64,000 nt of DNA from an uncultured Nitrososphaerota archaeon (GCA_963824385.1 CAWGPD010000001.1:1-64000); one strand, 5' to 3'. Positions 1,661 to 61,847 are shown, counted from the stretch's first letter. Notes: generated by a model not told the origin, from the sequence alone. Numbers and translations are program-made.

Positions 1661-3888
1661 TCATTCTTTTTCTACTGACAAAACAGCTTTACGGATTTTG
1701 TTGACTGCGTCCATATTACATGAGATACTCTTTATCCCCCACTTGACAAGCTGTTTTACCATTTCGGGATTACTCCCAGCTTCGCCACATATCGAACTCT
1801 CTACATCATACTTGTTACAAATATCAATTACATGATGAAGCATATACAAAACAGATGGATGAAATTCAGAATGCAACTTTGCAATCTTTGCATTGTTTCT
1901 GTCAATTCCTAAGGTGAGCATAGTTAGATCATTTGTTCCAAAACTTGCAAAGTCAATTCCTTCCTTGCAAAACTCTTCTATTGATAACGCACAGGCCGGA
2001 GTTTCAACCATTATTCCCAAATCAAAATTGTTTCCCATTTCAATTTTATTAGCAATCTCTTTTGCCTTTCTAAATTCATCAACTGAGATTAAAAATGGAA
2101 GCATCACATGAATATTATCTAGTCCTTCTGCGCGCATTCTCTTTATTGCTTCAAATTCTGTTTTTAGTAATTCAGGTTCATCCAGACTCCTTCTGATTCC
2201 GTGCCATCCAAGCATTGGATTATCTTCATGGGGTTCTGCATCTCCACCTTCCAGATTTCTAAACTCGTCACTTCTTGCATCCAAAGTTCTAACCCATACA
2301 GGTTTTGGATAAAATTTAGTAGCTATTGGTTTTATTCCGTTTGTCAAAATCGTGATATATTCCTCAGATCTACCTTCACGAACAAGTTTTGCAGGATGTA
2401 TTCCAGATTTAGTTACCATGTGTTCTATTCGTAGCAATCCAACACCGTCTGTTCTTGAAGCAACCTCCATCTTGTCTGCAAAAACAAGATTCACCTTTAC
2501 TTTGGTTTTGGTTTTTTCAACCTGTACTGGCTCACTTGTTTTGGTCTTATTGATAGAAACTGTTCCCTCGTAAACTATACCGGCATATGCGTCCACAGTA
2601 ACAATTTGCCCATCTTTCAAAATAGTTGTTCCATTTCCAGTCCCTACGATAGCTGGCAATCCCATCTCACGTGATACAATAGCAGCATGAGATGTGGCAC
2701 CTCCAAGATCCGTTATAATTGCAGCAGACTTGCTCATCTTTGGAACAAGATCTGGCGAGGTCATGGTGGTGACAAGTATATCGCCCTCCTCAATCTTTCC
2801 AATCTCGCTAATGTTTTTTACAATCTTTACTTTGCCAGTTGCAATTCCAGGAGATGCACCCATACCCTGCAATATTTTGACTCCTGTCATCTCACCTTCA
2901 CTTGTCTTTGCCTTTGTTGTAACAGGTCTTGTCTGGACAATTCTCATGTTGTACTGTTCGATTGCAAATTCTACATCTTGTGGTTTTCCATAATACTCTT
3001 CGAGTTGTCTACCATACTTTACCAGTTTAGAAATCTCATCATCGGTTAGAACTTGAGCATTAATTTTTTCAGCAGATATTTTTACCTGAATTGATTTACC
3101 AGTGGTATGATCTCGAACCAATGCAATTGGTTTTTGACCAATTTTTTTCTCTAAAACTTTACCTGTTTTATCCACCATGTAATGATCAGGTGAGACCTCG
3201 CCCAGTACAAGATATTCTCCCAAACCCCAGATAGATTCTATTATCATGACATTTTCTCCCGAGACAGGATCTTACAGTAAACATAACACCAGACTTGTCA
3301 GAGTTTACCATTCTTTGTACAACAACTGCTATGCTTGGGTTTTTGAAATTGTTCTTTGCCCTATAAAAAATGGCACGTGGTTCATAAAGAGAAGCCCAGC
3401 ATTCCTGTACTGATTTAACAAGATTTGCTGCGTGTTTTATATTTAGAAAGCTTGCCTGTTGTCCAGCAAATGATGTTCCAGGCAAGTCTTCTGCTGTGGC
3501 AGAACTTCTAACTGCAACAAACTCATCATCATCTTCAGTCAAATTAGTCTTGGATTTATTGTCTACATGAGATAGTTTCTTGTAAGAATCTATGATTTCA
3601 TTCTTTATTTCGCTTGGAAATTCTAGTGAAATAATTAGTTTCTTAATTTTCTTGGAGGTAGACATTAACATGTTAGTATCCTCAACATTGAGCACCTCTA
3701 ACATCATCTTGATTTTATCTGAAATATTATGAAACTGGATTAATCTTTCAAATGCAGTCTGTAGTTATAACAAATCCAGATGGAACTGGCAAGCCGATTC
3801 TAATCATTTCTCCCATGTTTGCACCCTTGCCACCTGCAATTGGGATGTCATCCTTTGTTACTTCTTCAAGCCAGCGAATGTATTTCAT
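1661..3888 (-). CDS. ppsA: Phosphoenolpyruvate synthase (pyruvate,water dikinase), two frameshifts (~3750, ~3265)
   Basis: N-term [29 protein letters not shown], phospho-His [11 protein letters not shown]-terminal [18 protein letters not shown]. Confidence 0.9.
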
Positions 3889-3971
3889 CGATTACATCTG
3901 GTTCTTGTATGGACAACTATTTGGATGTACGTGGGTGGAATTTTAATTGATAGAATTATCCATCTGCCTCA

Positions 3972-3990
3972 TTGACAAATTATTTGTCAA
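3972..3990. promoter_or_regulatory. Perfect palindrome TTGACAAAT-T-ATTTGTCAA in ppsA/M50 divergent region
   Basis: Read directly from sequence. Confidence 0.5.
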
Positions 3991-4015
3991 ACTTGCTTTT
4001 AGTTGAATTGCAAAA

Positions 4016-4031
4016 TTATCATTTGTGATAA
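4016..4031. promoter_or_regulatory. TTATCA-N4-TGATAA operator (perfect copy)
   Basis: TTATCATTTGTGATAA between divergent ppsA and M50-CBS protease. Confidence 0.7.
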
Positions 4032-4083
4032 TTACACTGACAGACTAAAAGGATCATATACCCAGTAGCATCAAGGCAATATC

Positions 4084-5250
4084 ATGTCTCTTCAAATAGG
4101 CCATATCAAAGGAATCAGCATTCGTTTACATTTTACTCTAATCATAACTTTTGTCCTAATCGATTGGACATTATCAACATATTTTATGCCAGATTATGTC
4201 AAAGGTCTCAAACCTGTGAGCTACTGGCTAATGGGTTCTGCTGGAAGTGTACTTTTGTTTTTCTCAATTTTATTACACGAGTTGGCTCACTCAATGGTTG
4301 CAAGAAGGTACAACATACCTGTAAAAAGTATCACATTATTTATTTTCGGCGGAGTATCAGATATTGCAAAAGAGCCAACGGATTTTCATCAAGAGTTTAA
4401 AATGTCAATTGCTGGTCCACTTGCAAGTTTTGGACTAGGAGTAATCTTTGCTTTATTTTATTGGCTAGTCTCAAGTGAAAGTTCGAGCAGTGCCATTTCA
4501 TATCTTGTGCAAATCAAAGGAGTCTTTTTCTATGCAGCATTGGCAAACATCCTACTTGGCGCATTCAATCTAGTTCCAGCATTTCCTCTTGATGGCGGCA
4601 GGGTTTTACGAGCAGGATTGGTAAGATGGAAAAAGGATTATCATGATGCAACAAAGATTGCAACGACAATTGGTGTATTGATATCATTTGTATTCATGGG
4701 ATTTGGTTTTATGATACTCATCAACGGAGATTTTGTTGGCGGTTTATGGATATTGCTGATAGGTTGGTTTTTGCACAACGGTGCCCAGTCATACATGTCA
4801 CAATTTGAGTTAACATCTGCATTAAAAGGAGTAATTATTGGTAACATCATGAATACAGAAATAATATCTGTTAGACGTGACATGTCTCTTGATTTCATCC
4901 TAAAGAATTTTTTTATGACCAGTATGAAAAGCGAACTGCCTGTAACAGATGACCAAGGCCATCTTTTAGGAATGATCACACTAAAAAACATACTAAACAT
5001 TCCAGAAAATAAAAGAGACACTGTTACAGTCCAGGATATTATGATTCAAATAGATCATCTTGCAATAATGCAACCTAATATGGAAGTTGAAAAAGCTTTC
5101 ATACAAATGGTTCAGAAACGTGTTGGAAAGATCTTCGCATGTGACAAAGATGGAAAACTTTTAGGAGTTGTGAGTAAGACAGATATCATAGAACTTGCAA
5201 GTGAACGACAAAAATATCTTCATGTTATGAAGAAGACAAGTTTGTCATAA
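4084..5250 (+). CDS. Site-2 protease (M50) with C-terminal CBS pair
   Basis: HELAH zinc motif, NLVPAFPLDGG, TM helices, two CBS repeats. Confidence 0.92.
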   Translation: MSLQIGHIKGISIRLHFTLIITFVLIDWTLSTYFMPDYVKGLKPVSYWLMGSAGSVLLFFSILLHELAHSMVARRYNIPVKSITLFIFGGVSDIAKEPTDFHQEFKMSIAGPLASFGLGVIFALFYWLVSSESSSSAISYLVQIKGVFFYAALANILLGAFNLVPAFPLDGGRVLRAGLVRWKKDYHDATKIATTIGVLISFVFMGFGFMILINGDFVGGLWILLIGWFLHNGAQSYMSQFELTSALKGVIIGNIMNTEIISVRRDMSLDFILKNFFMTSMKSELPVTDDQGHLLGMITLKNILNIPENKRDTVTVQDIMIQIDHLAIMQPNMEVEKAFIQMVQKRVGKIFACDKDGKLLGVVSKTDIIELASERQKYLHVMKKTSLS

Positions 5251-5261
5251 AGTAGATTGGA

Positions 5262-7720
5262 ATGTCACGTCTATCTCACAAGTCTCTCACTGCTGATGAA
5301 ATCAAAAAGGCTTCAGTAGAAGATTCTTTTTTTGTCTTTGTCCACAGGAAAAACTGGAATCAATTCTCAAGAGGCAAAGAAGCGGTTAGAAGAATACGGA
5401 TACAATGAGATTGAGGAAAAAAAGATAAATCCTCTTAGAAAACTTCTGGGTTATTTCTGGGGACCAATCCCATTTATGATAGAGGCAGCTGCAATAATCT
5501 CTGCAATTATTTCCCACTGGGAGGATTTTTGGATAATAATATTTCTGCTTTGTATAAATGGAACAGTGGCATTCTTTCAGGAACACAAGGCCGACAATGC
5601 AATAAATTTACTAAAACAAAAATTATCCATTAGATCAAGAGCACTACGTGATGGCAAATGGGTTGAGCCTTCATCTCAAGAGATTGTACCAGGCGATGTC
5701 ATACGTGTTCGACTAGGGGATATCATTCCAGCAGATGCCAAACTCTTTGCTGGAGAATATCTTGATGTAGACGAGTCTGCCCTTACGGGAGAGTCACTGC
5801 CAGTGGAAAAACATGTAGAAGATGTTGCCTATTCTAGCTCCATCGTACAAAAAGGCGAGATGAACGCACTTGTTGTGTCCACAGGGATGAGGACATTCTT
5901 TGGAAAGACTGCAAAACTTGTCGGAGAGGCAAGGACAAAAAGTCATTTCCAAAAAGCATTAATGAAAATAGGAAATTATCTTATCGCACTTGCAGTAGGA
6001 CTAATCGCACTTGTTTTTCTAGTGGCAATGTTTAGACACGAGAGCCTTCTTGAAACTCTACAATTTGCATTGGTGTTAATGATTGCCTCAATACCAGCTG
6101 CGCTACCAGACTGTATTGTCAGTAACTATGGCGGTGGGTGCAACAGTTCTTGCAAAAAAACAAGCTCTTGTCAGCAAGCTGACTGCCATAGAAGAGATGG
6201 CAGGAGTCGATATTTTATGTGCAGATAAAACTGGAACGCTTACAAAAAATGATCTAAGTGTTGCAGAGCTTGTCACATTTGACAAATTTACAGACTCTGA
6301 TCTTTTGATGTTTGCTACTCTTGCATCAAGAGGTGAAGATACAGATCATATTGACAATGCAATCATTGCAAGAGCCAAGGCCTCAGATGTCTTGGAAAAA
6401 TCCAAACCTTACAAACAGCTTTCTTTCAAACCATTTGATCCAGTAATAAAAAGAGTTGAATCCAAGATAGAAGATCCTTCCGGAAAAGAATTCATGGTGT
6501 CAAAGGGCGCACCCCAATCAATACTTTCACTTGTGTTAAACAAGGATGATATCTCTGCAAAGGTAGATGAAAGTGTAAGAAGACTTGCATCTAAAGGATA
6601 TCGCTCTCTTGGAGTAGCAAGGACAAACTTGCAAGGAACATGGGAGTTTGTAGGAATTATATCATTACACAATCCACCAAGAGAAGACTCCAAGGAGACC
6701 ATCAAGACTGCCAAGACCATGGGCATTGACATCAAGATGATAACAGGAGACCATCTTGATATTGCAAAAGAGATAGCAAGAGAATTAGACCTTGGCACAA
6801 ACATACAAGATGCATCTCAAATAATTGACAAGACAGACCAGGAGATACAAAGTGTTGTTGAGCAGGCAGATGGTTTTGCACAGGTCTTTCCTGAGCACAA
6901 GTACAAGATAGTAGGAGCATTACAGGCAAAAGGTCACATTGTTGGCATGACTGGAGACGGAGTAAATGATGCCCCAGCCTTAAAGAAGGCAGATGTCGGA
7001 ATTGCAGTTTTTGGTGCAACTGATGTTGCAAAATCTGCAGCGCATATTGTTCTTACTCAACCAGGAATTTCAGTTATTATAGATGCAATCCAAGAAAGCC
7101 GCAAAATATTTCAGCGAATGAATAATTATGCCATATACAGAATCAGTGAAACTATCAGGATCCTTTTCTTTCTAGTGTTTTCCATAATTGCTTTCAGTTT
7201 TTATCCAATCACCCCTCTAATGATTGTCTTGCTTGCAATCTTGAATGATGTACCAATTATGACTATCGCTTATGACAATGTAAAGATCTCATCTAGTCCT
7301 GAGAGATGGAATATGAAAAAAGTTCTGGGAATTGCCACAGGTCTTGGTTTGATAGGCGTAGTCTCAACATTTGTTCTACTCTATATAGGAATGAATGTTT
7401 TCGAATTGAAAACAGGGCCATTACAATCATTAATTTATTTGAAATTATCCGTTGCAGGACACATGTTATTTTTTGTTGCAAGAACGCGTGGTCATTTCTG
7501 GACGGTAAAACCTGCGTTGAAGTTATTTTTGGCAATAATTACAACACAGGCTATTGCAACAATAATTACTGCCCAAGGAATTTTAGTACCAGCAATAGGG
7601 TGGCATGATGCATTATTTGTCTGGGGATATGCACTGGCATGGTTTTTGGTAGCAGACTTTGCGAAAGGTCCAATCTACAAATTGTTAGAATACAGGGGTT
7701 TGAATTTGCGCAATAGGTAG
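5262..7720 (+). CDS. Plasma-membrane proton-efflux P-type ATPase (P3A), frameshifts near 5325 and ~6105
   Basis: FWGPIPFMIE, LTGES, SIPAALP.VLSVTMAVGA, DKTGTLT, TGDGVNDAPALK, LNDVPIMTIAYDN. Confidence 0.9.
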
Positions 7721-7764: not shown

Positions 7765-9105
7765 GTGGTTCTAATGACATTGTCACTTTCGTTTCCTATC
7801 ATTCCATTTAACAAGATGTTCGAGTCCAATCCATATTATGATTACATGTTAAAGGGGTTTGAATTTGCGGTAAAATACAATTCCGCACTTGTAGACGCAG
7901 ACTCAAAGGCATTTGAGACTTTTTTTAGTACAAGGAACGGAACGGCGCAGAACATAAGAAAAACTATCAGATCTTCCTTTGATGTTACGCTACGAGATGA
8001 TCTAAACGATGATGCACTGGCATCAAGTATGACAGACTATGTCGAAGCTTGGACAAAAATATGTGATCTTTTTGGATTTAGTCAATTTACTGCCAATTCC
8101 TATGACCTCTTCTCTTATGCAAACAGAATGCTTGAACCGTTAAGAGACAACGTCAACCGAACACCATCTGAGGTCATAGAGATGAAAGGTAGATTCAATC
8201 TGCTCCATTACAAATCAGACCTTCCAGTAGTACACAAAACCCCTCTGCTTGTAGTAGGCTCGCTTATCAACAGATACTACATCTTGGATTTGTTGCCTAA
8301 TGTAAGCATAATAAAAAATCTCCAAAGACAAGGCTTTGATATTTATGCAACGGATTGGGGAACCCCCAAGTCATTTGACAAGGACTTGACACTTGAAACA
8401 TATGCAGAAGAATATGTAGAAAATGCAGTAGAAAAAGTCAAGGAAGTAACAGGTTCTGACAAGGTGTCACTATTGGGATACTGTTGGGGAGGAATTTTTG
8501 CGCTAATCTATTCATCTACACATCAAGAGAATGTCAAGAATTTAATTTTGCATGCCACCCCAGTTGATATTAACAAGGAAAAGACGATAATAGAAAATTG
8601 GACTGCTCATCTCAATGCAGGCAATCTTGTTGACACATTTGGCAATATACCAGGATGGCTCATCAACCTTGCATTTCTCTTACGTGATCCAGTGCAAACA
8701 ATACTAAAGTATCCAAGATATTTCAGTGAACCCCGAAGCCGTGATGAGATTACACAGTTTTTTGCAATTGAGACGTGGCTATACGACAGTACGCCAATAA
8801 TAGGAGGAGTATATCGCGAGATAATCAATCAAGTATATAGAAAAAACCTTTTGATAAAAAATGAGATGAAAGTAGGTCCAGATATTATAAATTTAAAAAA
8901 TATTACAATACCGATTCTTGACATAGTTGGGACCAGTGATAATCTGGTGCCCCCATCAGCAAGCACGTCAGTAATTGATGCAATAGGTAGTACTGACAAA
9001 AAACTAATTGAATTTCCAACAGGGCACGTTGGTTTATGTGTAAGCACTGCCGCACATGAGAAATTATGGCCCGAAGTTGGAAAGTGGCTTGCCCAAAGAT
9101 CCTAG
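7765..9105 (+). CDS. phaC: Class III-type PHA synthase with N-terminal helical extension
   Basis: SLINRYYILDL, lipase box GYCWGG, catalytic Asp (SDNLVP) and His (TGHVG). Confidence 0.85.
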   Translation: MVLMTLSLSFPIIPFNKMFESNPYYDYMLKGFEFAVKYNSALVDADSKAFETFFSTRNGTAQNIRKTIRSSFDVTLRDDLNDDALASSMTDYVEAWTKICDLFGFSQFTANSYDLFSYANRMLEPLRDNVNRTPSEVIEMKGRFNLLHYKSDLPVVHKTPLLVVGSLINRYYILDLLPNVSIIKNLQRQGFDIYATDWGTPKSFDKDLTLETYAEEYVENAVEKVKEVTGSDKVSLLGYCWGGIFALIYSSTHQENVKNLILHATPVDINKEKTIIENWTAHLNAGNLVDTFGNIPGWLINLAFLLRDPVQTILKYPRYFSEPRSRDEITQFFAIETWLYDSTPIIGGVYREIINQVYRKNLLIKNEMKVGPDIINLKNITIPILDIVGTSDNLVPPSASTSVIDAIGSTDKKLIEFPTGHVGLCVSTAAHEKLWPEVGKWLAQRS

Positions 9106-9170: not shown

Positions 9171-9998
9171 TTATTGTAAAATCTGTCTTGAAAGACTCTG
9201 TAGTCTTTCTAGTCTTTGGAAGGATATTCCAGTTTTATTAGACAACAGACCCAAATTTGCTTTTACCAAGTCTCTAATTAACATCATATCATTTCTTGCA
9301 AAAGACGCAAGTTCAAATTTGTTTAATCCAAGAATTGTAATGGGATATAGACCCTTTTCTTCAATCATCATTTCAAGACTTTTCTCTGGAGGATATCGCC
9401 AAGAAATTATTTTCTGACCTATGCACTGGGCATATGTTCGCGCATCATCAGATAATTTCGTATTACATATCAACATCTCATGTTGGTATTTATCTTCAAG
9501 ATCTAAAAATCTTGCATGAGTATACAATGATTCTTTGAGTCCAGTATACAATCCAGATTGATTATGATATTTACATTCAATTAGATATTTTTCTCCGCTA
9601 GAAACAAGTTCTGTAATGAGATCAATTTCATGATGTACACATTTACCTTGCACTATGGCCCTAATTGACAAAACATCATGACCGTAGGCACCAAGAATTT
9701 CGCCCACATACGTCTCAAAGCTATACCCCGCAGGCCCCATTCTCATGATGGATTCTTTCAAACGATACTTGTGTCGAATGATAGTGCCCTCATCTTCAAT
9801 TTTTAGAGAATTTAGAACCATTTTGTAAATTTCAGATGTATTCATGTCATCGTATACCTTCTGAGATATCCTATCAGCTATTCTCTTTGCAGCCTTTCTG
9901 CTTGCACCAGCCCTGAGGCATGTCTCTCGCAGTTTGAATTTGTTAAATGGTACTCGTGCACCGTTTGCTTTTATAATCCAGACGGTTTTTTGGCTCAC
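9171..9998 (-). CDS. ATP-cone + Mrr-like PD-(D/E)xK nuclease-fold protein
   Basis: WIIKANG.RVPF...KL...RAGA ATP cone; GYSFE, HEID, IECKYH; GTG start at 9998 preferred over 10076. Confidence 0.8.
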   Translation of the reverse strand: MSQKTVWIIKANGARVPFNKFKLRETCLRAGASRKAAKRIADRISQKVYDDMNTSEIYKMVLNSLKIEDEGTIIRHKYRLKESIMRMGPAGYSFETYVGEILGAYGHDVLSIRAIVQGKCVHHEIDLITELVSSGEKYLIECKYHNQSGLYTGLKESLYTHARFLDLEDKYQHEMLICNTKLSDDARTYAQCIGQKIISWRYPPEKSLEMMIEEKGLYPITILGLNKFELASFARNDMMLIRDLVKANLGLLSNKTGISFQRLERLQSLSRQILQ

Positions 9999-10069
9999 GA
10001 TGAGAAAGTCAAACTCTAGTTGTAAAAAGTTATCTGAGTATTCCAGAATACTTGGATATCTAAGGTTTA

Positions 10070-10085
10070 CAATCAAAGATGAAAA
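10070..10085. promoter_or_regulatory. Degenerate TTATCA-N4-TGATAA site upstream of AMP phosphorylase operon
   Basis: CAATCAAAGATGAAAA ~12 nt before TATA-like GATATAT. Confidence 0.4.
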
Positions 10086-10130
10086 TTGTACTCAAATGAT
10101 ATATCCTACAGAAAATAGAAAAATCTTGAA

Positions 10131-11675: not shown

Positions 11676-11680
11676 AAAAT

Positions 11681-49860: not shown

Positions 49861-49861
49861 T

Positions 49862-50638: not shown

Positions 50639-50703
50639 TCAGGACATGAATTTGTTAGTATAAAATTTGAAATTAATGTATGAATCCAAGGATGGTCCCG
50701 GCA

Positions 50704-50719
50704 TTACCAGATATTATAA
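50704..50719. promoter_or_regulatory. Degenerate TTATCA-N4-TGATAA site
   Basis: TTACCAGATATTATAA 12 nt before TTTTTAT. Confidence 0.5.
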
Positions 50720-50761
50720 TAGGATGTCAAGTTTTTATGTATCAATTTCATACTGGAACCA

Positions 50762-51205: not shown

Positions 51206-51211
51206 TTTAGT

Positions 51212-52074: not shown

Positions 52075-52115
52075 TAATTTTCATATATTTTGGGTGGATT
52101 ATAGGCTTTTTACAA

Positions 52116-52131
52116 ATCTCACTTGTGATAA
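52116..52131. promoter_or_regulatory. Degenerate TTATCA-N4-TGATAA site
   Basis: ATCTCACTTGTGATAA ~12 nt upstream of minus-strand TATA. Confidence 0.55.
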
Positions 52132-52278
52132 CACTGTCAATACTTTCATAATTACAATCCATCTAAATTTTTGGCGATAATTTTTAAGTCATAGGTTAGA
52201 GTTCGGGGGTTCTCTTGCTGACAGTCAGTGCTGGCATTGAGAATATAGATATTACATAGATCCACCATTAGGATCATA

Positions 52279-52861
52279 TCAAGTTTGTATTCTTTGCCAA
52301 TCTTTAACTAGTAATTCTAAACGAATTACTTCATCTTTATCCAACTCACAACTATGCGCAATAAGATTTCGAACTTTATTGAATTGAGAAAGTGTTTGTT
52401 GCATTGCCTTTTGGCTTCTAATTTTGTCACAAAATAGTTGCCAATTAGATTCTATCACAAATAAGCTCTCCAAAATTTGTATAAGTTAATTGATCTTCAT
52501 TAGATGGTATTACCAAGGTCGTTTCCTTTTCAGCCTCTTGTAACTTTTTTACATTATCCTTTATTCCTTGTGGAACTCCTTTTTCCCACCAATCAGTTCC
52601 ATATTCTTCTACAAGGGTTTCTTTTATTAATCGTCTTACAGAATTTTCAAAACAAAAATAGATCACATAAAAATCAGCCATCCTTCTGGCACTTTTTCTT
52701 ATATCTGCATCAAATAACTCAGATTCTACATTCTCGTCCTTGGTCACAGTCTGCATATGACCAATATCGATACCTTGTTTTTCTAATTTAGCCAAGTCTG
52801 TTTCCAACATAAGATTTCTCATCCCAAATAATTTTACTTCGTCAGATTTTTTTTCACTCAT
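52279..52861 (-). CDS. Swt1-like HEPN RNase domain protein (frameshift ~52465)
   Basis: FENSVR..I, WW, YT.FGEL, NW..F, RNLIAH (RxxxxH). Confidence 0.8.
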
Positions 52862-53465
52862 TCAAGATATGCTCTTTCAAACTTTTGAAGATAGCATTAA
52901 AAACTTCGATATCAGTCGTGGGTGGTAGATTAAGATTAATTGTGTAATTAAGCCCTAATTTCGTAGTGAGTTTTTCTTTTTGCTGATGCTGATACAAATC
53001 AGGCAATTGTTTCGAGGTTTCTTTTACAATAGGGTCGGATTCAAAATCTGCTAAATCACATAATACTTTAAACGTACCTGCAACATTTGGAACAGTTTTA
53101 TCATCATCACCAACCCCAAGTATTGATTTCAATTTTGCCTCAACTTGTTGCTTAGTTAGTCTGTGTGCATAGGCATTAGCGGTAAAGAGAACATTGTAAG
53201 ATTCCTTGATTCTCTTTGATAATACTTGTCTTGAAATAGAATCATCTCTAAAATCTTTATAATGTTCTGTAGGAGTATTTGCAGGATCCAAGAATCCAAG
53301 ATTTTTCAGCAATGGGATCATAGCATTGTAACTTGATGATTTTAAACCAAGCATTGTTGAAATAAAATCACGATTAAATTTAGTTGGAACATTTGCAGTT
53401 TTAATTGCCCCAAAAAGGTTTGCCACTGACTTATATGCATTAACATATGGCGGATAATTTACCAA
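52854..53465 (-). CDS. DUF5343-like protein
   Basis: I..A.VP.KF..DF, LK.LGFLD....PT..Y, TF..LC.LADF, L.Y.INL.LP.T.D.EVFNAIF. Confidence 0.7.
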   Translation of the reverse strand: MVNYPPYVNAYKSVANLFGAIKTANVPTKFNRDFISTMLGLKSSSYNAMIPLLKNLGFLDPANTPTEHYKDFRDDSISRQVLSKRIKESYNVLFTANAYAHRLTKQQVEAKLKSILGVGDDDKTVPNVAGTFKVLCDLADFESDPIVKETSKQLPDLYQHQQKEKLTTKLGLNYTINLNLPPTTDIEVFNAIFKSLKEHILNE

Positions 53466-53834
53466 CGTTGTTACTATATTTTTACTACGATAAATAGATC
53501 ATGGTAATTATACAATAATTCTTTCATTTTCCATATCAAAATGAATTACCATGTTTAGATCTAAGTATCTCATTTATTTCATAATTTTTGTAATTTTGAA
53601 CTTTCAAAATCAAACAGTACTTTATATTCCATAAAATATGATTTACTAATCAAATCAAAAATCTTCATAGGATCCTTCTTGAGGTGAACACTAGTAAAAC
53701 GATATACTTGATGCCTGAAATTATCTAGTTTAGATTGCATTTCTCTAATTTTAAGGATTTTAAGTCGCTATTGTTTGAAAATAACCAAATTCATACAAGG
53801 ATTATTATTTAATACCATATTTCCAAACCCCTAG

Positions 53835-54492
53835 ATGTATAGCGGAGAGCGTGAAGTCCAGTCAAAGAGAAAAGCCCTTGCTGTCCTACAAGACGAGATA
53901 AACAGAATTCTTAATGCTGTAAGAGACCTCTCAATTCTGCCTGGCTTGATCATCAAGGCAGACAAGTCTGAGATAAAACAGACACTTGAGCGAATAAAAA
54001 ATACCGAAGATGAAGTTGAAGCCCTCCGTAGAAAAATCACTAGAGATATTCAGACATTGGAGGGCTTATGATGCATAGGGAGAATATTTTAAACTCGGCA
54101 TATACCATGGATGAGATTGCAGGATACATCACAGGCATTGCATTTAGGCTCTCAAACATCAAGGCTGCAACACTCAAAAAAGAAAATCTTGACAAGAGCA
54201 TTACAGAACTAGTAGAACTAGCAGTAGACCAGATTCAAAAAATTAATGAAATAATCAGGGCTCTAGCAAACAACAACAGTATAGTGGCAATTGACTTGGC
54301 ACATGAAGCACAAAAAATAGAGAGACAGGTAGACAACAAGTACAGGGCATTAAGCATTAGAATACTTGATGAAATTAGCACGCCAAAAGAGGGCTGTTGC
54401 TTCTTAAAGACATAGTAGAGGGAATAGAAGAAATGTCAGACAAAGTTCTCCAGGTTTCAGACTCGTTTATTTTGCTTGCCCTAAGCCTATAA
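53835..54492 (+). CDS. DUF47/PhoU-like phosphate transport regulator (frameshifted)
   Basis: Helical repeats E.E...RR.I, ER.VD..YR. Confidence 0.8.
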
Positions 54493-54556
54493 AATATTAA
54501 AAAACATTTATTCCGTATACTATTAGACTCCACCAGATTTTTTTCTAGCCTGCTCT

Positions 54557-55228
54557 CTACATCAGATTAAATGCTTTCAACACTGAATCTACTGATGCCT
54601 GTATCACATTGTATGAAAGTTCTCCCAAAGTCGGATTTTCAGACATGCTACCTGCATACGGATCACATGTAGGTGTATTTGGAAGATGTCCAACACCGCT
54701 AAAGTATTTTTGTTGATGTGCTTGCAGTTCACAGTTGATGTTAGTCATTGGAACTAGGGGACCTGCATCATTTGGCGCTACTGCCAATTCGACTTTGTAT
54801 GTAAAGATTATTCCAGTGTGCTTGTAGACTGTAAATTTTGTTGTCTTGTCTGTGAATCTGTAATTGTTGTTAATTCCCCTGTCTATTTTTATGATATGTG
54901 CACAGTTGTAGTTCTTTGATAGCTGGTCTTTTACACTGATTGTTGTAAAACTGATTCCATGATACTGTACTTCGTTTTGTATTGTTGGTAGTATTTGTGG
55001 ATCCATGTGACTGTCCATCGGAGTAAAGATGCAAAGGTTAGACTGCGGTATTGTTGTTACTGTCTTGACTCCCCACCCAGCATATGTACTAGTTGATGGA
55101 GGGTTTGCAAATACGGATACGGTTGTGGTTGTTGGAATGAACGTGCTTACATTTAATGCAAATACTGGACTCATTCCAAGTGCTACGATGCAGATTAGTG
55201 CTAGTGAAGCGATTTCTCTTATTTTCAT
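54557..55228 (-). CDS. Secreted hypothetical protein
   Basis: Signal peptide, T-rich N-terminus, paired Cys. Confidence 0.7.
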   Translation of the reverse strand: MKIREIASLALICIVALGMSPVFALNVSTFIPTTTTVSVFANPPSTSTYAGWGVKTVTTIPQSNLCIFTPMDSHMDPQILPTIQNEVQYHGISFTTISVKDQLSKNYNCAHIIKIDRGINNNYRFTDKTTKFTVYKHTGIIFTYKVELAVAPNDAGPLVPMTNINCELQAHQQKYFSGVGHLPNTPTCDPYAGSMSENPTLGELSYNVIQASVDSVLKAFNLM

Positions 55229-55345
55229 ATTACCCGTCCCATGTGATTGAATTCTACAACCATTGTAATAATATGGTAATTAACCTGTATATAACTAGTA
55301 ATAATGAACAAAACCAAGGGTACTAGATAGTTACAAGATAACTAC

Positions 55346-55600
55346 TTGACTGATATACCATACATGACAGGATATGTACTTGCAAGCAATTACCGAAAGA
55401 AAGTGTTGTTAGCATTAAAAGAAAAGGCATTAACGCCTAACGTTATTTCTGAGAAAACTGGCATTTATCCAACACATGTTAGTACAACTTTGACACAATT
55501 ATCCAAGATGAGTATCGTAGTTTGTCTAACTCCTAAGCTAAAGAAAGGAAAGTTATATGATCTTACAAAAGAAGGTAGAGGAATATTGAATTTTATCTAA
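55346..55600 (+). CDS. Small winged-helix (MarR/ArsR-like) regulator
   Basis: S.YR.KVL..L.....TP..IS.......VS..L..L...V.C......G.LY.LT..G. Confidence 0.85.
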   Translation: MTDIPYMTGYVLASNYRKKVLLALKEKALTPNVISEKTGIYPTHVSTTLTQLSKMSIVVCLTPKLKKGKLYDLTKEGRGILNFI

Positions 55601-55715
55601 CATCACAAATGAAGACATAGTCTTTAGACATTCATTAAAAATTATCACATGCATACACGAGATTCTTGAAGTAGAATTTAATTTCTCGATATTCAAACCC
55701 ATCTTGTTCTAGCAA

Positions 55716-55871
55716 CTGTTTGAGATTTTGGGTATGACAACTATAACCTACAAGTTCCAAATCACTATACCAAAGAAGGTAAGAGAGAAACACAGTCTTC
55801 AGGAAGGAGACTCGATCATGTTCTTAGAGGAAGATGGTAAAATCTATCTTACAAAAAGTACAGATGTTTGA
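55716..55871 (+). CDS. AbrB/MazE/SpoVT-family DNA-binding protein (not in ORF track)
   Basis: LGMTTITYKFQITIPKKVREKHSLQEGDSIMFLEEDGKIYL; start codon uncertain. Confidence 0.75.
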   Translation: MFEILGMTTITYKFQITIPKKVREKHSLQEGDSIMFLEEDGKIYLTKSTDV

Positions 55872-55877
55872 TCATTC

Positions 55878-56183
55878 TCATGATTTTTTCTTCAAGTAAT
55901 CCTCAAGAAATCCCAAAAATGCACTACCATCTTTGACTCCTTTCTCATAAGATACCTTTTCCATGTTGTAAAGATGTTTCAAAAAGTCCAAGTCTGCTTT
56001 TGAAAACCATTCCACCATCTCCATAAAATACTGGATTGCCTTCTCATCACTGTTGGTGCGTTTATCATCTAAAGTAGAATCTATGTTTGGCGTTTTAGTC
56101 ACTACCAAATCACCTAAATCCTCCACTAGCAAACCGCTCTCCACCAAGATCGTGTCGTAGATACTGTTCCGTATGATTTCCAA
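55878..56183 (-). CDS. Hypothetical protein (start probably shorter)
   Basis: ORF overlapping upstream gene. Confidence 0.4.
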   Translation of the reverse strand: MEIIRNSIYDTILVESGLLVEDLGDLVVTKTPNIDSTLDDKRTNSDEKAIQYFMEMVEWFSKADLDFLKHLYNMEKVSYEKGVKDGSAFLGFLEDYLKKKS

Positions 56184-56358
56184 AATCTACTGTAACAATA
56201 AAGAACCCCTTACTTGGAACACCGTCTTTGAAAATAACTAAATCATTTTCCCAAGTATAACCAAGTACTGTTCCTTTTCTTCCATCTCTTGTTTTTACAG
56301 AATCTCCTTCCCAATATACAACTGGAAATCCTGCGATGGATGGAAAATGTTGCTTCAC
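56110..56358 (-). CDS. Small SH3/KOW-like hypothetical protein
   Basis: GD.V.T.DG..G.V....V.VDFG beta pattern. Confidence 0.5.
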   Translation of the reverse strand: MKQHFPSIAGFPVVYWEGDSVKTRDGRKGTVLGYTWENDLVIFKDGVPSKGFFIVTVDFGNHTEQYLRHDLGGERFASGGFR

Positions 56359-56478
56359 GTATTATAGCATGTTTAGTATAACTTAAAATCATCTATTATA
56401 AAGTTTAGTGATAATTAATATTTGAATTCAAATGGTAATACACATTTTCAATATGTATTAGAACGTATTTTTGATATA

Positions 56479-58054
56479 TTATCCCAAACTGCCCCCAGCC
56501 CACCTAGAGCCCTTACTTACAAGCCATGCCAAGTATGCATATCCTGCAGCGTGCAATGCATCGTCATTGGTTTCCTCTGGATGAGTATACTTAACATAGC
56601 TTTTACCAGAAGATTCCGCCGTTTCAGATTCTATGCATGTAAAATGTTCAATCATCCAGTCCATATTATTGGGATTTTTATATGGAATATGGATTCGTGG
56701 AATGCCGTCAGGGTAGTTTGCGTTATCTTCAGGGCGTTTTATTAGATCTATTATGGTCTCAATTACCCAGGTTCTATCTACATTAATTTTATGATCTGAA
56801 TTAATTATTTCATATGGAACTTCAGAATTATACCTGTAATGGCACTTGTAAATTCTAGGTCCATATTTTTTTGAAAGCTTCTCAACCTGTCTTGTACCAC
56901 CACCAGAGTCCATCACAATTTGATCAACTTCAAACTTGTCAATTAATTCAGAAACCATATCAGTCTTGGGTTTCAGTAGAACTTTCTGTAATCTTTGTTA
57001 CATACAATAACTTGAATCTTGGGACATCTTTGTTGACCAGCTGCCAAATCCAGCCTACAGTGAACGCTTGAGTACCACCACCCCAGTCTACTCCCATAAA
57101 TACTAGAAGATCATGATCAACTAATTCATGTGGAGTGAAATCAAGATTTCTGTCAAATAATGTACGAATCTCTTTTTCAAGTAATGGTTTGACATTTCCG
57201 CCATACCACAAACCCTCAACCTCATTTGCAAATCCTCGTGGCGGATAGGTTTTTCGTTTGGATTCTATATCTTCTTGTAATCTGTCTGGCGCCATCTCCT
57301 GAGAAAGATGATACGAACTTATTTTTGAGAGGGGGTTTTTTGCAATCCAAGTTTTTGTTTTTAAATCATATTCTTTTTGATCTCCCGTATGCCACAACTT
57401 CCACCAGCCATCGCCTGTTATGCTTCCAGTACCAACGTGCACACATTTCCCAAATTTTGATTTTGCAAGTGCCTCTTCTAGTACAGGTATAGATTCTACA
57501 TTTGTTGACTGGATTTCATCGACAACTGCAAAATCTGCAGGAATAGACCTAGCGGCTTCAAAGTCTTGCTGGGCAGAGTACATGAACAAGTGTGAACCAT
57601 TTTTAAAAGACAGCCATGAAACGTTGCCCTTCTTGTGCACTAGTCCTTGAAGTATCGGTGATTCACCAATGGCACGACTACGTACTCTCATTTTTGAAAA
57701 CACGGAAACGTGGCTTTTACGGTCTGAGAGGTATATTCCTACAGTATTTGGATTTTTTTCCAGATTAAAAAGCAACCAGTTTATGGTAAATTCTGTAATT
57801 TCCATTTGTCTTGGTTTTACAATCATAATTTTCTTGTTTTGATCAGAATAGATTTGCTTCAGATATTCTCGTCCCTCAAAAGAAAATTTTTTGCCCTGAA
57901 TTTTTCTAACTGTTGTTGTCCAGTCTATGAGATTGTCAGGAGTATTTGGAAGTGTTACGGGCATCACAAATTTTTTCTCGAATATTTTTTTTATTCTAGC
58001 AATTTCCCTTCTTGCAAGTAGATTATGCGCCGCCTTCCACCTAAGCTGCGACAT
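56479..58054 (-). CDS. Phage terminase large subunit (GpA-like), frameshift ~56960
   Basis: KPRQMEITE Walker-A-like, AVVDE Walker B, nuclease GVDWG, DSG, NDDALHA. Confidence 0.8.
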
Positions 58055-58520
58055 GGTCAGTCCCCATCTTTTGCTTGAAGAGATCATCGGTTTCTGTTTG
58101 TACTATAGTATCAGTAGTTGGCGTGCATTCAAGATTATTCTTCTCAAGATATAGTTTTAAGATAAGTTCCTTTGTCTTACGATATTCTGAATATAGCCAC
58201 CTTTTTTTATGAATTGGCCCTGATGATTTTATTGCTACATCTAGTTCGGCGCTTCGTTTTTTCATTTCAAGTATTTCATTGTCTAATTCTAAAATTGTTC
58301 TACCATTTGATAGTCTGCAGTTTTTAAAAAACTCAGGTCCCTGTACAGAAATGTATTTCTCATGCCAAATTCTAAAGTATCGCCTGACCGTTTTTACGTT
58401 TATTCCTGTCTCATATGCAACTCTATCAGGCTTGTACCTTTGCTCAAAATATGGCCAGAGTTGTCTTTCGATCTCACTCTGTTCAGCCAATGTTGGCCTT
58501 CCGTTTCTTTTTTCAGACAT
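58041..58520 (-). CDS. HTH + coiled-coil protein, candidate terminase small subunit
   Basis: GRPT, VA.ETGINVKTV.RYF; overlaps TerL start. Confidence 0.55.
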   Translation of the reverse strand: MSEKRNGRPTLAEQSEIERQLWPYFEQRYKPDRVAYETGINVKTVRRYFRIWHEKYISVQGPEFFKNCRLSNGRTILELDNEILEMKKRSAELDVAIKSSGPIHKKRWLYSEYRKTKELILKLYLEKNNLECTPTTDTIVQTETDDLFKQKMGTDHVAA

Positions 58521-58859: not shown

Positions 58860-59369
58860 ATGATATCTGACATACTAAACGAGCCAGTCTCCAAGTTTAC
58901 AAATAAAAAAATGACTACAATATCAAGCAATCTTACCATTCAAGACGCAGCAAAGGCAATGGCAGAATCTAAAGTAGACAGCATCCTAGTCTTTGAAAAT
59001 GGAAAAATAATAGGAATGGTTACAGAAAAGGATATTTTACAAGATATTGTAGCAAAGGGACTAGACCCCTCAAGTACAATACTCAAACAAATAGCAAAGA
59101 GCCCATTAATTACAATAAACAAAACCGCTCCAGTAAAAGAGGCCCTAGAAATAATGAAAAAGCATGATATCAGAAGGCTGGTAGTAATGGACAAGCGCCC
59201 AATTGGACTAGTAACCCAGAAAATGGTCTGCGGAAACCTCACTGACAGAGATATAGTACTGCCAGAACTTGAGATGCCAGACAAAACAACATGTCCATAC
59301 TGTACACTACATTTCAAAGACAACTCTAGTCTTTGCAGTCATATAGACAGAATCCACATCAAAATATAA
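58860..59369 (+). CDS. CBS-pair protein with C-terminal C2H2 zinc finger
   Basis: GMVTEKD; CPYC...F....L..H...H. Confidence 0.85.
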   Translation: MISDILNEPVSKFTNKKMTTISSNLTIQDAAKAMAESKVDSILVFENGKIIGMVTEKDILQDIVAKGLDPSSTILKQIAKSPLITINKTAPVKEALEIMKKHDIRRLVVMDKRPIGLVTQKMVCGNLTDRDIVLPELEMPDKTTCPYCTLHFKDNSSLCSHIDRIHIKI

Positions 59370-59429: not shown

Positions 59430-60011
59430 ATGGCAGTAAAAAGACAGCCCCACCCTACAAAGCATGAGCAGACTAGAAGCATAAGCTATCGTTTACCAGA
59501 GCACATTATCGAAGAATTAGAAACAGAGGCCCAGCAAAAGGAGATATCTCAAAATGTTCTGGTAAAACAAATTTTAGAAAAATATGTTGGTTGGGAGAGG
59601 TTTGCAAAAAATATTGGCATGGTTCCAGTTCCCAAGGAAATTCTCGTTGTATTAGGTGAAAAAATGGATGGAGAGGTAATGAATGAGATAATACATACAA
59701 TGACTCCAATGATCAAAGACTGGGTCATGTTCATGAAAGGCGGCTATGATCTAAAACGAGTAATAGAATCACTTGAGGATTACATGAGAGCGTCTGGAAT
59801 GACATCAGACCATAGAATCGAGGGAGGCATTCATCATTTTATCATACAGCACAGTCTTGGAATACGCTGGTCGCTATTTACAGAACTTTTTTTGAAGCAA
59901 ATATTTCACGAATTTCTGCCAAATCTTGCCATGAAATCTCGCACTACGCCAAATACAGTCATAGCAAGTATTGCTCTAGGTTCTGACTTTAACGAACACA
60001 ACCATAGTTGA
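59430..60011 (+). CDS. RHH-like + 'HxLGxxWS' domain protein (paralog of 403..940)
   Basis: TRSISYRLP..I.E.L..EA....ISQN.LV.QIL. Confidence 0.7.
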   Translation: MAVKRQPHPTKHEQTRSISYRLPEHIIEELETEAQQKEISQNVLVKQILEKYVGWERFAKNIGMVPVPKEILVVLGEKMDGEVMNEIIHTMTPMIKDWVMFMKGGYDLKRVIESLEDYMRASGMTSDHRIEGGIHHFIIQHSLGIRWSLFTELFLKQIFHEFLPNLAMKSRTTPNTVIASIALGSDFNEHNHS

Positions 60012-60359: not shown

Positions 60360-60632
60360 TTAGTCCTTTTTTTTATACACATCACGTCTATGTGATACAT
60401 CGTAAACATTTGCAGTACCTAATTCACGGAAAAAAAGAATCCTGTAATCTCCAACGCGAATCCTGTAATGATTATCATATCCCTTTAGTTTCTTCATGTC
60501 AAGCCTAACCATAGGCCATGTAGTCTCAAGCTCCTTCAACGCTTCTCTGATTCTATTTTTCAGATCCGTGTGAAATCCATCAATTTTATTAGAAATTTCT
60601 TTTTTGACTAAAACCTTGATTGGTACGTCTAG
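60360..60632 (-). CDS. relE: RelE/ParE-family toxin (no canonical start; not in ORF track)
   Basis: KKLKGYDNHYRIRVGDYRILF...V.HR.DVY. Confidence 0.85.
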   Translation of the reverse strand, partial: LDVPIKVLVKKEISNKIDGFHTDLKNRIREALKELETTWPMVRLDMKKLKGYDNHYRIRVGDYRILFFRELGTANVYDVSHRRDVYKKKD

Positions 60633-60881
60633 TTATCTTAATGAATCCAAGGATACAAACTTCATACCGCCTTTTTTCTTCTTGGATTCAAAATTCTTTA
60701 TTGCCTTAATTTCATATGCATCAGGATTGTCTTCTAGTATCACACTTTTCTCTATCATTTTATGTAATTTGATAATCTGCACGCGCAAAAGTTTCATCTC
60801 TTTATCAGTGGTTTGCTTGTAACTTTTAACTTCCTTTATAATTTTTTTAATATCATGATGTGATACTGTTTTGGTTTCCAT
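60633..60881 (-). CDS. Putative antitoxin
   Basis: Immediately upstream of RelE; acidic P..YE..AI and C-terminal FVSLDSL. Confidence 0.7.
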   Translation of the reverse strand: METKTVSHHDIKKIIKEVKSYKQTTDKEMKLLRVQIIKLHKMIEKSVILEDNPDAYEIKAIKNFESKKKKGGMKFVSLDSLR

Positions 60882-60948
60882 AGAATATTTGTTATACTAT
60901 TGATTGACTAAAAAGGATTCTTATTTATAAAAATCCATTCTTAAACCC

Positions 60949-61025
60949 AAGGTTGTACTAAAAAATTATTAAAATCTGAAAATGCTCCACAAGGATTTCA
61001 TTTCGTGCCTGTTATGAAATATTTC
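60949..61025 (+). repeat. ~77-bp direct repeat, copy 2
   Basis: AAGGTTGTACTAAAAAATTATTAAAATCTGAAAATGCTCCACAAGGATTTCATTT...GAAATATTTC. Confidence 0.8.
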
Positions 61026-61034
61026 ACAAAAAAT

Positions 61035-61796
61035 CTAGCTTACAGTTACAGTTCCAATTCGCCATGGGTGAATTGTACAATAGTAATGATACACTCCCGG
61101 ATTGTCAAACTTGTAAGAAAATGTATCTCCAGTATTTAGTAGGCCGCTGTTAAACATTGGAATTATATTTCCGTTTGAATCTATACTTTGGATATCATGT
61201 TGTATAGTATCTTGATTTTGCCATGTAACAGTTGTTCCAGGAATTATCTCCAAGTTAAGTGGCAAATAGAACCCAGTACCTGCAGTTACAGAGTTTCCGT
61301 TTGGAATCAGGATTTTAGCATTGTTTGATACACTAACAGTTGGAATGGGATCACTTCCAACTAAAAGATAATTTAGAAAATATTTCTGGGCATTGTCTTG
61401 CATGTTGGCTGTTACCTTCCACATGGAATCACCTCCTGTTGCATAGAGTCTTGTTCCATCAAGAGAGACAGTAAATGTATCCTGGGAGACAGTTTGCGCA
61501 GTGCCCTGGCCATGAAATGAACCGTCGTTGTTGTATGTAAAATTCCACGAGTCGCCAGTAAATCTGGCTACAAAAATTCCATTACTTCCCTCCACTAGAA
61601 TTGCACCATTTCCTATAGTTGTTGGATTGACAAGAGAGAGTCGCATGCTTGAAGTATACAAAGCTGGATTATCGCCATTAATCATTGCAGCCCCACTGCC
61701 TTTCATGGAATAAGTAGAATCTGCAAAAGCAAAACTAGATGAGACTGCCACTAGACCTAATATGATTCCCAAAACTAGGGCTCTCATTTCTAACAT
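61035..61796 (-). CDS. Secreted protein with C-terminal plastocyanin-like cupredoxin domain
   Basis: Signal peptide; GTTVTW.N.D...H, G.Y.YYCTIHPW. Confidence 0.85.
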   Translation of the reverse strand: MLEMRALVLGIILGLVAVSSSFAFADSTYSMKGSGAAMINGDNPALYTSSMRLSLVNPTTIGNGAILVEGSNGIFVARFTGDSWNFTYNNDGSFHGQGTAQTVSQDTFTVSLDGTRLYATGGDSMWKVTANMQDNAQKYFLNYLLVGSDPIPTVSVSNNAKILIPNGNSVTAGTGFYLPLNLEIIPGTTVTWQNQDTIQHDIQSIDSNGNIIPMFNSGLLNTGDTFSYKFDNPGVYHYYCTIHPWRIGTVTVS

Positions 61797-61831
61797 ATAG
61801 TACTAAATACACTATATAATTAACATATACA

Positions 61832-61847
61832 TTATCAGACATGATAA
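61832..61847. promoter_or_regulatory. TTATCA-N4-TGATAA operator (perfect copy)
   Basis: TTATCAGACATGATAA centred between two divergent TATA boxes. Confidence 0.72.

Follow-up and report, generated by a model that had tools for sequence, protein, structure and literature searches.

Stress genes and operator sites in the window

We analyzed a 64,000-nucleotide stretch of DNA from an uncultured Nitrososphaerota archaeon (GCA_963824385.1, CAWGPD010000001.1:1–64000), referred to in the following as the window, which between positions 1661 and 61,847 holds a collection of stress genes together with repeated copies of a palindromic operator. The source genome (1.68 Mb in 5 contigs, 86% complete) encodes an archaeal AmoA, and the organism was taken to be a Nitrosotalea-like ammonia oxidizer because the CBS-domain protein encoded at 50189 is 93% identical to a protein of Candidatus Nitrosotalea bavarica. 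Searches of the window with Pfam and NCBIfam profiles confirmed the inventory of a first-pass annotation of the same DNA: six Usp genes (30432, 32458, 37841, 39891, 43533–43951 and 49143–49590), eight CBS-domain genes (4084, joined to an M50 protease; 13915; 33162; 40438, joined to an HPF-like domain; 50189; 50762; 51215–52074; and 58860), an Hsp20 gene, two P-type ATPases (by NCBIfam, a type IIIA proton pump at 5.3–7.7 kb and a P1B ATPase), a phosphoribosyltransferase (PRT) with an alpha/beta-hydrolase, and a class III PhaC-like synthase. The window also encodes AMP phosphorylase, ribose-1,5-bisphosphate (R15P) isomerase and type III RuBisCO.

The window makes up 3.8% of the genome length and holds 6 of the 16 Usp loci and 8 of the 25 CBS loci, where 0.6 and 1.0 would be expected (binomial p of 2e-5 and 3e-6, in a test that ignores clustering and for a window picked after the fact). 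With both families combined, 14 of 41 loci lie in the window against 1.6 expected. The first-pass annotation had named an equal Usp/CBS density throughout the genome, without the shared motif, as the observation that would speak against it; instead, every other 64-kb window held at most 5 of the 41. Usp matches ranged from 1 to 19 per genome among 31 genomes of the genus, independent of the 4 unpublished genomes among them, and several of these genomes carry similar islands.

The operator is a 20-bp palindrome, GATTATCA-N4-TGATAATC, with a free center, as described by a matrix retrained on 41 sites taken from four relatives; the first matrix contained its own seeds, and this second one was used for scoring. 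Exact copies of TATCA-N4-TGATA occur six times in the window, all of them intergenic, compared with 0.17 expected, and none of 100 shuffles reached six. The one-mismatch version of this plain pattern gave nine matches in the window against 5.85 expected, which is not significant. Genome-wide, 13 of the 22 matches with the N4 spacer were intergenic, whereas each of 12 other spacers gave 0–5 intergenic matches; the 6-bp spacer version served as the control in pattern searches, the backwards-read control being too weak. Sites of at least 12 bits were intergenic in 33 of 62 cases, although called open reading frames (ORFs) occupy 80–88% of each contig. Such a site was found within 200 bp of 10 of the 22 CBS genes examined (excluding the M50-CBS gene, the HibA-like gene and IMP dehydrogenase, and counting 3 positives that are copies on contig C5) and of 4 of 16 Usp genes, compared with 39 of 2069 ORFs. 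By the matrix, ten strong window sites lie outside real genes (4017, 13858, 15340, 18279, 25424, 30323, 34059, 50134, 52117 and 61833), with one more inside the P1B gene (25751) and weak sites at 38389, 36861, 50705 and 10071. The operator stands before CBS, Usp, Hsp20, HibA/HPF, SriC-like, AMP phosphorylase, cupredoxin, cyclase and transporter genes, so that the earlier proposal of many genes under one operator was upheld, and we regard it as almost certain that a real regulon lies under it. Because sites also precede CBS, Usp and other genes outside the window, including those for a TPR protein, a PAC2 protein, a nitroreductase and a MASE3-type sensor with an HTH gene, the regulon is genome-wide, with the window as its core. 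A TFB paralogue (C3:315699) scored 16.4 bits with the first matrix and below 12 with the second, and is doubtful as a target. The two hemerythrin genes lie outside the window, and neither is in the list of sites of at least 12 bits.

At the left end, a 19.8-bit operator (4014–4033), kept in the relative G171, lies between the divergent ppsA (phosphoenolpyruvate synthase/pyruvate,water dikinase; 1661–3888, − strand, split in three frames) and the site-2 (M50) protease with a CBS pair (4084–5250, + strand). The split type IIIA ATPase that follows (5326–7720, +; TIGR01647, 678.8 bits, above the cut-off) is probably co-transcribed with the M50-CBS gene. The PhaC-like synthase (7765–9105, +; TIGR01836, 324.5 bits, below the 365.3 cut-off) is a second paralogue, other phaC/phaE genes being located at C1:258–260 kb. 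Downstream of the AMP phosphorylase genes, a 21.9-bit operator (13855–13874) is followed by a CBS-domain gene split in three frames (13915–14681, +), and a 14.0-bit operator (15337–15356) precedes a DUF6082-like gene (15467–15850), with sites in 2/2 relatives. A 15.8-bit operator (25421–25440) stands before the split P1B heavy-metal ATPase (25459–27341, +), and one of 21.8 bits (30320–30339) separates an inferred operon of a 57-aa Cys-rich ORF, alpha/beta-hydrolase, PRT and Nramp genes (27382–30221, −) from a UspA gene with a short-chain dehydrogenase (30432–31781, +).

Further right, a 17.6-bit operator (34056–34075) lies 42 bp before a four-CBS gene (33162–34016, −), downstream of which is a UspA gene without its own site (32458–33105, −). 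A divergent pair of UspA (−) and Hsp20 (+) genes (37841–38932) shares a weak site at 38389 (8.7 bits), followed by a UspA gene with a malate/lactate dehydrogenase paralogue (38976–40373, −); this malate dehydrogenase (MDH) is a second copy besides the housekeeping one. A split UspA gene (43533–43951, +) has no site and has a near-copy on contig C5. An operator of 22.7 bits (50131–50150) lies between an inferred operon of a small Cys/His ORF, an 89-aa hypothetical protein and UspA (49143–50128, −) and two CBS-pair genes (50189–51205, +), the second of which has a weak site of its own at 50705 (6.8 bits; 16 bits in the C5 copy). A 14.6-bit operator (52114–52133) lies 42 bp before the second four-CBS gene (51215–52074, −, split). 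A gene for a CBS pair with a C-terminal zinc finger (58860–59369, +) has only a weak site here (3.8 bits), and a 20.0-bit operator (61830–61849) separates a cupredoxin gene (61035–61796, −) from a class III nucleotide cyclase gene (61891–62787, +).

Several other features of the window lie among these genes. HEPN-like and DUF5343 genes are found at 52279–53465 and a ParE/RelE-like toxin–antitoxin-like pair at 60360–60881. A split terminase large-subunit-like gene (55878–58520, −) has a possible small subunit upstream, with no other viral genes seen in a Pfam scan; a comparable terminase relic has been described for NitKor-E1 (PMC6563490). A second palindrome, TTAG(G/C)-N3-5-(G/A)CCTAA, occurs at window positions 45139, 46961 and 48066 and at C1:76112, C1:167544 and C5:7578, where it precedes multicopper oxidase, ZIP transporter and pentapeptide-repeat genes; we take it to resemble DtxR/IdeR metal boxes.

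Many window ORFs are split by 1–2-bp indels. The broken genes compared are intact in the relatives G171 or G166, and core genes elsewhere in the assembly (IMP dehydrogenase, SRP54) are broken as well, so the breaks are probably assembly errors; 4 of 51 gaps lay beside homopolymer runs of at least 3, a count that says little because alignment artefacts are likely. Segments within 43.4–56.4 kb (43431–56421) have copies on contig C5 that are 85–96% identical and represent either a strain haplotype or a recent duplication; operator sites on C5 are therefore not independent of those in the window. PAS histidine kinases lie between these window-like blocks of C5. A NuoB fragment (42860–43390) has a 96.6% identical copy on contig C3. 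Read in reverse, the leading 179 bases of contig C4 match window positions 5–182 at 98% identity, which suggests that the two contigs adjoin.

Conservation and promoter position of the operator

In relatives of the same genus, where the islands are rearranged, sites of at least 10 bits precede the orthologues of Usp 30432 (5/5), Usp 37841 (6/6), CBS 50189 (7/7), the P1B ATPase (4/4) and CBS 58860 (5/5), against a background of 50/2068, with 4 of the 12 orthologue sets in this comparison having trained the matrix. The interspersed core genes of the same islands had none at this threshold (cobO 0/4, HD 0/5, LOR 0/5). When all loci were counted, including those in other genera, sites were found for Hsp20 (17/17, at least 10 bits), the four-CBS genes 33162 (34/41) and 51215 (21/21) and the HibA-like gene (9/11), while MDH (0/24) and PRT (0/10), which are mostly operon-internal genes, had none. 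Sites were kept at 40–60% protein identity and after rearrangement.

Across 151 genomes of the family, the strict pattern gave 706 matches compared with 252 for the 6-bp spacer (695 and 251 without the unpublished genomes G077, G092 and G093). Genera g2, g11, g12, g14, g18 and g19 were not above this control. In 20 regions of other genera picked around winged helix-turn-helix (wHTH) or Usp genes (277 kb), the operator gave 142 sites and the control 7. Beyond the family, 3 of 105 genomes of the phylum had the strict pattern, one copy in each. The regulon has its core island here, but it extends past the window and is shared with other organisms.

The position of the sites relative to the promoter is also constrained. 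Among 430 distinct sites with a start codon no more than 150 bp away, 162 sit 40–44 bp from it, and a TATA-like hexamer starts 13–15 bp past the core in 171, compared with 21–44 at five other offsets. Aligning the sequences on the site gives a sharper TATA signal (1.71 bits) than aligning them on the start codon does (1.15 bits), and no purine-rich TFB-recognition element (BRE) is conserved between site and TATA. Known archaeal activators, such as Ptr2 and TFB-RF1, bind just upstream of a weak BRE–TATA. Since the site position matches theirs, the operator quite probably acts in activation.

Two other explanations bear on these data, namely that the palindrome is a repressor site, or that the clustering reflects a mobile cargo island without common regulation. 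A minority of sites close to the start codon, such as that 21 bp before the P1B ATPase, would suit a repressor, but the fixed spacing upstream of TATA speaks against either idea. Thaumarchaeal integrated elements carry Usp and CBS genes as some of their most frequent cargo (PMC6563490), and the terminase remnant, the toxin–antitoxin-like pair and the duplicated segments would fit such an origin; on the other hand, the sites persist through sequence divergence and rearrangement, and dispersed CBS and Usp genes on other contigs are preceded by sites as well. We consider both explanations very improbable.

Putative ribosome hibernation factors and AMP salvage genes among the targets

Three target proteins resemble ribosome hibernation factors. 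The protein encoded at 40438–41607 (+) has a four-CBS module fused to a predicted C-terminal HPF/RaiA domain, the architecture of the archaeal hibernation factor HibA/AHA (PMC13324472). In the predicted model, which is of low confidence (mean pLDDT 45; 55–72 in the HPF region), residues 277–375 matched HPF/RaiA chains with Z scores of 9–11 (best Z 11.0, root-mean-square deviation 2.8, 97 aligned). The CBS module matched chains 9sr9_H and 9l96_a; its best sequence hits are SriD chains, which outscored HibA chains, and the HibA chains were absent among the listed fold matches of this model. The gene scores 2.4 bits here, i.e., it has no clear site, in contrast to most of its orthologues. In genus g13, a stand-alone HPF-like gene, 37% identical to the C-terminal domain of 40438, lies within an operator-led Usp–HPF–MDH string. 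Marine Nitrosopumilaceae have been named among lineages with few identifiable hibernation factors, and HibA is reported to co-occur rarely with CM-1 proteins (PMC13324472), whereas both types are found together in the window.

SriC/CM-1 proteins are four-CBS hibernation factors, with SriC homologues reported in Nitrososphaerales (PMC13454478). For both four-CBS proteins of the window, the nearest solved relative by sequence is 9zni_6, from the SriC–SriD ribosome complex (E 1.8e-32 for 33162; E 6.8e-24 for the intact G171 orthologue of 51215). In SriC, a long basic loop binds the small subunit; this loop has some 10 residues fewer in the 33162 family and is full-length but acidic in the 51215 family; short-loop (SriC-short) proteins have possibly diverged in function (PMC13454478). 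No sriABCD cluster was found here, although no search was aimed at SriD. We therefore treat 40438, 33162 and 51215 as candidate ribosome-hibernation homologues, one HibA-type and two SriC-like, on the basis of sequence and modeled fold. These homologues give the dormancy idea of the first-pass annotation a structural basis.

The genes for AMP phosphorylase (split), R15P isomerase and type III RuBisCO are adjacent at 10131–13820 (+), as expected for archaeal AMP salvage (TIGR03326, 587 bits, above the cut-off; TIGR00511, 193 bits, below the cut-off, for the isomerase-like gene). A separate MtnA-like paralogue is present in the genome. A RuBisCO gene beside AMP phosphorylase has been reported for Ca. 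Nitrosotalea bavarica (PMC5767755). In the present lineage, by contrast with AMP salvage elsewhere, an upstream footprint ties the pathway to the stress operator: a weak site of 5.9 bits (10068–10087) lies 46 bp before AMP phosphorylase and is followed by a TATA-like stretch. Among the 30 best orthologues from 72 genomes, 29 had upstream DNA, of which 22 carry a site of at least 5 bits 38–50 bp upstream (compared with 27/2068 ORFs) and 14 reach 10 bits. The weak but positionally fixed sites agree with the coupling to AMP catabolism suggested earlier. Ten genera of the family have AMP phosphorylase (72 of 401 genomes), often beside an ATP-cone/Mrr gene; in the window, this neighbor is an ATP-cone and Mrr-like (AF1548-like) gene without its own site (9171–10076, −). 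Type III RuBisCO occurs in 3 of 151 family genomes, all of the present genus, with none found outside it using the window's query.

The first-pass annotation had also linked the set to substrate-level ATP production, which is poorly supported, since the ADP-forming acyl-CoA synthetase (34665–36812, −), a third paralogue besides the housekeeping ones, has only a weak site (36861, 7.3 bits) and does not occur at the corresponding place in the relatives G171, G152 and G163. In this acidophile-related lineage, the plasma-membrane-type proton pump (5326–7720) lies downstream of a strong operator and may defend cytoplasmic pH when respiration falls.

Inducing signal, candidate regulators and comparison with bacterial regulons

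Two DNA-binding proteins travel with the island: a 113-aa wHTH protein (34103–34444, −) and a ribbon-helix-helix (RHH) protein (59430–60011, +). The wHTH recognition region is nearly invariant, and its gene precedes the four-CBS gene in most examined loci. Five variant palindromes of like geometry lie around a paralogue at 18768 (32% identity), which favors the wHTH family as the binder. These palindromes, ACCATTCTC-N6-GARAATGRT, are found at 18274, 19283, 19645, 20822 and 21245 and nowhere else in the genome; they surround a DUF7521 membrane gene, the wHTH paralogue and a small HTH gene, and probably form a local regulon of that paralogue. A variant operator of 18.2 bits (18276–18295) lies 40 bp before a cupredoxin gene. 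In the RHH protein, the DNA-binding strand is invariant, and four invariant histidines in the C-terminal domain favor it as a sensor. No solved relative or family was found for this domain, a profile search yielding 1320 unnamed relatives, while fold and profile searches with the wHTH protein gave solely generic winged-helix matches.

Of 151 genomes, 75 have a close orthologue of the wHTH protein, 79 have one of the RHH protein, and 70 have both. The mean site excess over the control was 5.0 in genomes with both (n = 70), 5.6 with wHTH only (n = 5), 4.0 with RHH only (n = 9) and 0.6 with neither (n = 67), the orthologue cut-offs having been set by eye. These co-occurrence data do not separate the two candidates, and we put the chance that the regulator is one of them slightly above even. 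Paralogues of the two recur as adjacent pairs in this genome (C4:468657–469393) and in others, hinting at a two-protein regulator. A second RHH-domain protein is encoded at 403–940 (−); it is split, and the intact G171 copy is 98% identical.

The nature of the signal was approached through expression data from relatives. Sponge symbionts related to Nitrosopumilus changed 20 and 17 genes under hypoxia compared with normoxia, nearly all of them upward, with UspA, Hsp20, CBS, lactate/malate dehydrogenase, TPR, PII, DnaJ and transcription regulators among the raised families (bioRxiv 2023.02.27.530229). Of these, UspA, Hsp20, CBS, lactate/malate dehydrogenase, TPR, PII and transcription regulators have the operator in front here or belong to operator-led operons. 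In Nitrosopumilus maritimus, CBS genes Nmar_0673, 1271 and 1304, Usp genes Nmar_0674 and 1272 and the MDH gene Nmar_0676 went from zero counts to present as part of a block, including several hypothetical proteins, that was found only at 32 °C with iron, in unshaken 2-L bottles with 1 mM ammonia (PMC12974425). The Nmar strings CBS|Usp–small gene–MDH and CBS–Usp–cupredoxin–Usp match operator-led strings of g13 in family and order; since no N. maritimus record was among the 120 matches listed in a homologue search with the four-CBS alignment, the orthology stays at that level. Usps also top the low-oxygen proteome of the bacterium Nitrospira marina (PMC8115632). An anoxia transcriptome of N. viennensis was not usable, as it comes without differential analysis (PMC13475601). 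Low oxygen or low energy is, in our estimation, fairly likely to be the main signal, and we hold with similar, moderate confidence that the window forms the core of a regulon that spans the family in group I.1a-related ammonia-oxidizing archaea and is activated by low oxygen or low energy. The first-pass annotation had proposed such a program; its low-oxygen part is what the sponge transcriptomes make likeliest, whereas its anoxia trigger does not agree with relatives that respond to hypoxia but not to anoxia compared with normoxia.

A number of points weigh against this reading. The expression support comes from relatives rather than from the present organism, and the link between the operator and the Nmar and sponge data rests on family and gene order. 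In the sponge symbionts, anoxia compared with normoxia changed 3 and 0 genes (bioRxiv 2023.02.27.530229), and those data were collected in situ with a threshold of p < 0.1. The N. maritimus block was off at 23 °C and at 27 °C, although 27 °C gives the fastest growth, and oxygen does not figure in the available passages on these cultures (PMC12974425). Copper limitation is also reported to raise two CBS genes of the block, and the main text on the N. maritimus oxygen-depletion proteome, as far as it was available, names no Usp or CBS protein (bioRxiv 2021.04.01.436977). Both candidate regulators may be passengers of the island: 6 of the 67 genomes with neither still had a site excess of at least 4, and only 6 of 54 wHTH and 2 of 23 RHH copies have upstream sites of their own, so that autoregulation singles out neither. 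The second matrix was trained on relatives retrieved via the first matrix from the present genome. Because kin genomes are non-independent, the conservation counts are descriptive only, and in genus g13 the strict pattern was barely above the control genome-wide (36 vs. 31), its Usp and CBS loci carrying clear sites by the matrix only.

Alternatively, the same operator regulon might answer heat or general growth-arrest stress instead of oxygen. The N. maritimus block appears at a supra-optimal temperature, and its authors ascribe it to heat stress (PMC12974425). At 32 °C without iron, however, the block was reported to be off while Hsp20 Nmar_0010 was higher, and this opposite movement shows that the block is not a plain heat-shock response. 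Thermosome and PAC2 genes follow the operator along with Hsp20, and the wHTH model has its closest fold match in Phr, a heat-shock regulator of Pyrococcus (E 3.7e-4, 15% identity), but such a match is generic among winged helices, and Phr is a repressor. Moreover, the sponge symbionts induce the set under hypoxia (bioRxiv 2023.02.27.530229), and ammonia starvation is reported not to have regulated uspA transcripts. We consider the heat or growth-arrest explanation unlikely.

It is less likely still that the regulon responds to a by-product or redox effect of intense ammonia oxidation (nitric oxide (NO), nitrite or over-reduced carriers) or depends on an iron cofactor, low oxygen doing no more than heighten such a signal. 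Induction by hypoxia rather than anoxia and the iron requirement of the N. maritimus on state would fit, though lower activity could account for the latter. The operator stands before nitroreductase and cupredoxin genes, and the four invariant histidines of the RHH protein could hold metal or haem, but fold and profile searches assigned a known gas-sensing domain to neither candidate. The mycobacterial regulator DosR, too, responds to NO and carbon monoxide (PMC5069765).

In the reading we favor, a dimeric activator (the wHTH protein, the RHH protein or both) would bind the palindrome and recruit TBP/TFB to weak, largely leaderless promoters. The trigger would be falling oxygen, sensed directly or as a drop in energy charge, while transcription is still possible. 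The products would park ribosomes and protect proteins, adenylate-binding Usp and CBS proteins would damp metabolism, AMP phosphorylase would drain AMP (joined in some Nitrosotalea by R15P isomerase and RuBisCO), and other products would defend pH and metal balance. To our knowledge, few regulons have been defined in strictly aerobic ammonia-oxidizing archaea. The operator, its target list and two candidate regulators make it possible to test directly how these organisms hold out in soils, sediments and waters poor in oxygen. They also bring together expression findings so far put down separately to heat, iron or hypoxia, and they place type III RuBisCO metabolism and the newly described hibernation factors of archaea under transcriptional control. 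With this lineage, a Usp/CBS/Hsp20/hibernation-factor module appears for the third time under a regulator unrelated to the others. We found no description of this operator or regulon in the literature, subscription papers being outside our coverage. The operator appears to be new, as do its activator geometry, its extent across the family and the connection to hibernation factors and AMP catabolism.

The first-pass annotation had compared the gene set to the DosR regulon. Targets of DosR/DevR and OsdR include Usps, a heat-shock protein, a nitroreductase and a pyruvate phosphate dikinase-type enzyme (PMC5069765). The likeness lies in these overlapping families, with Usp, CBS, Hsp20 and nitroreductase genes under one palindrome here, in core genes clustered near the putative regulator, and in probable activation at a palindrome; there was also a generic CBS match to Rv2626c (E 7e-12). 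The likeness does not extend to homology. The NarL/LuxR-type regulator domain PF00196 had no matches in the 86%-complete genome (controls positive, 12/14), and neither had the HisKA_3 domain PF07730 of DosS/DosT-type haem-GAF kinases, GAF domains not being searched separately; PAS-HisKA kinases are present on C5. The GC-rich DosR box has the form GGGAC-N6-GTCCC. With one mismatch, this pattern occurs three times genome-wide and not at all in the window, and the operator here is AT-rich, unrelated to the OsdR/DevR consensus and set at archaeal TATA promoters. The earlier analogies to CtpF and Tgs1 are likewise not supported, as the window has a type IIIA proton pump, a P1B ATPase and a second PhaC paralogue in those places.

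FNR and FixK offer a second comparison. In alphaproteobacteria, their microoxic core targets include UspA and Hsp20, along with a CBS protein, a Zn alcohol dehydrogenase and a heavy-metal P-type ATPase (PMC2908626), a set with which the predicted targets here overlap. Unlike in those bacteria, the genome has no match to the cNMP-binding (CRP/FNR) domain PF00027 (controls positive, 10/14), and no terminal oxidase genes were seen among the operator targets. The FNR/FixK box is TTGAT-N4-ATCAA, and the half-sites of the operator point the opposite way. One could imagine an independently built, DosR/FixK-like oxygen-sensing dormancy switch, in which the His-rich RHH domain (with metal or haem) or a wHTH–CBS pair reads oxygen or energy charge and drives hibernation factors, adenylate sensors and AMP-consuming RuBisCO metabolism from an activator site beside TATA; we think this specific scheme possible but doubtful. 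If true, it would account for the persistence of these aerobes at oxic–anoxic boundaries, and the palindrome, along with its transcripts, could serve in the field to mark nitrifiers limited by oxygen. The gene set is of a kind known from bacteria, and its component families are known. The best reading is that the regulon is DosR- or FixK-like in its working, yet without a recognizable regulator of either kind, and represents a convergent hypoxia or low-energy regulon.

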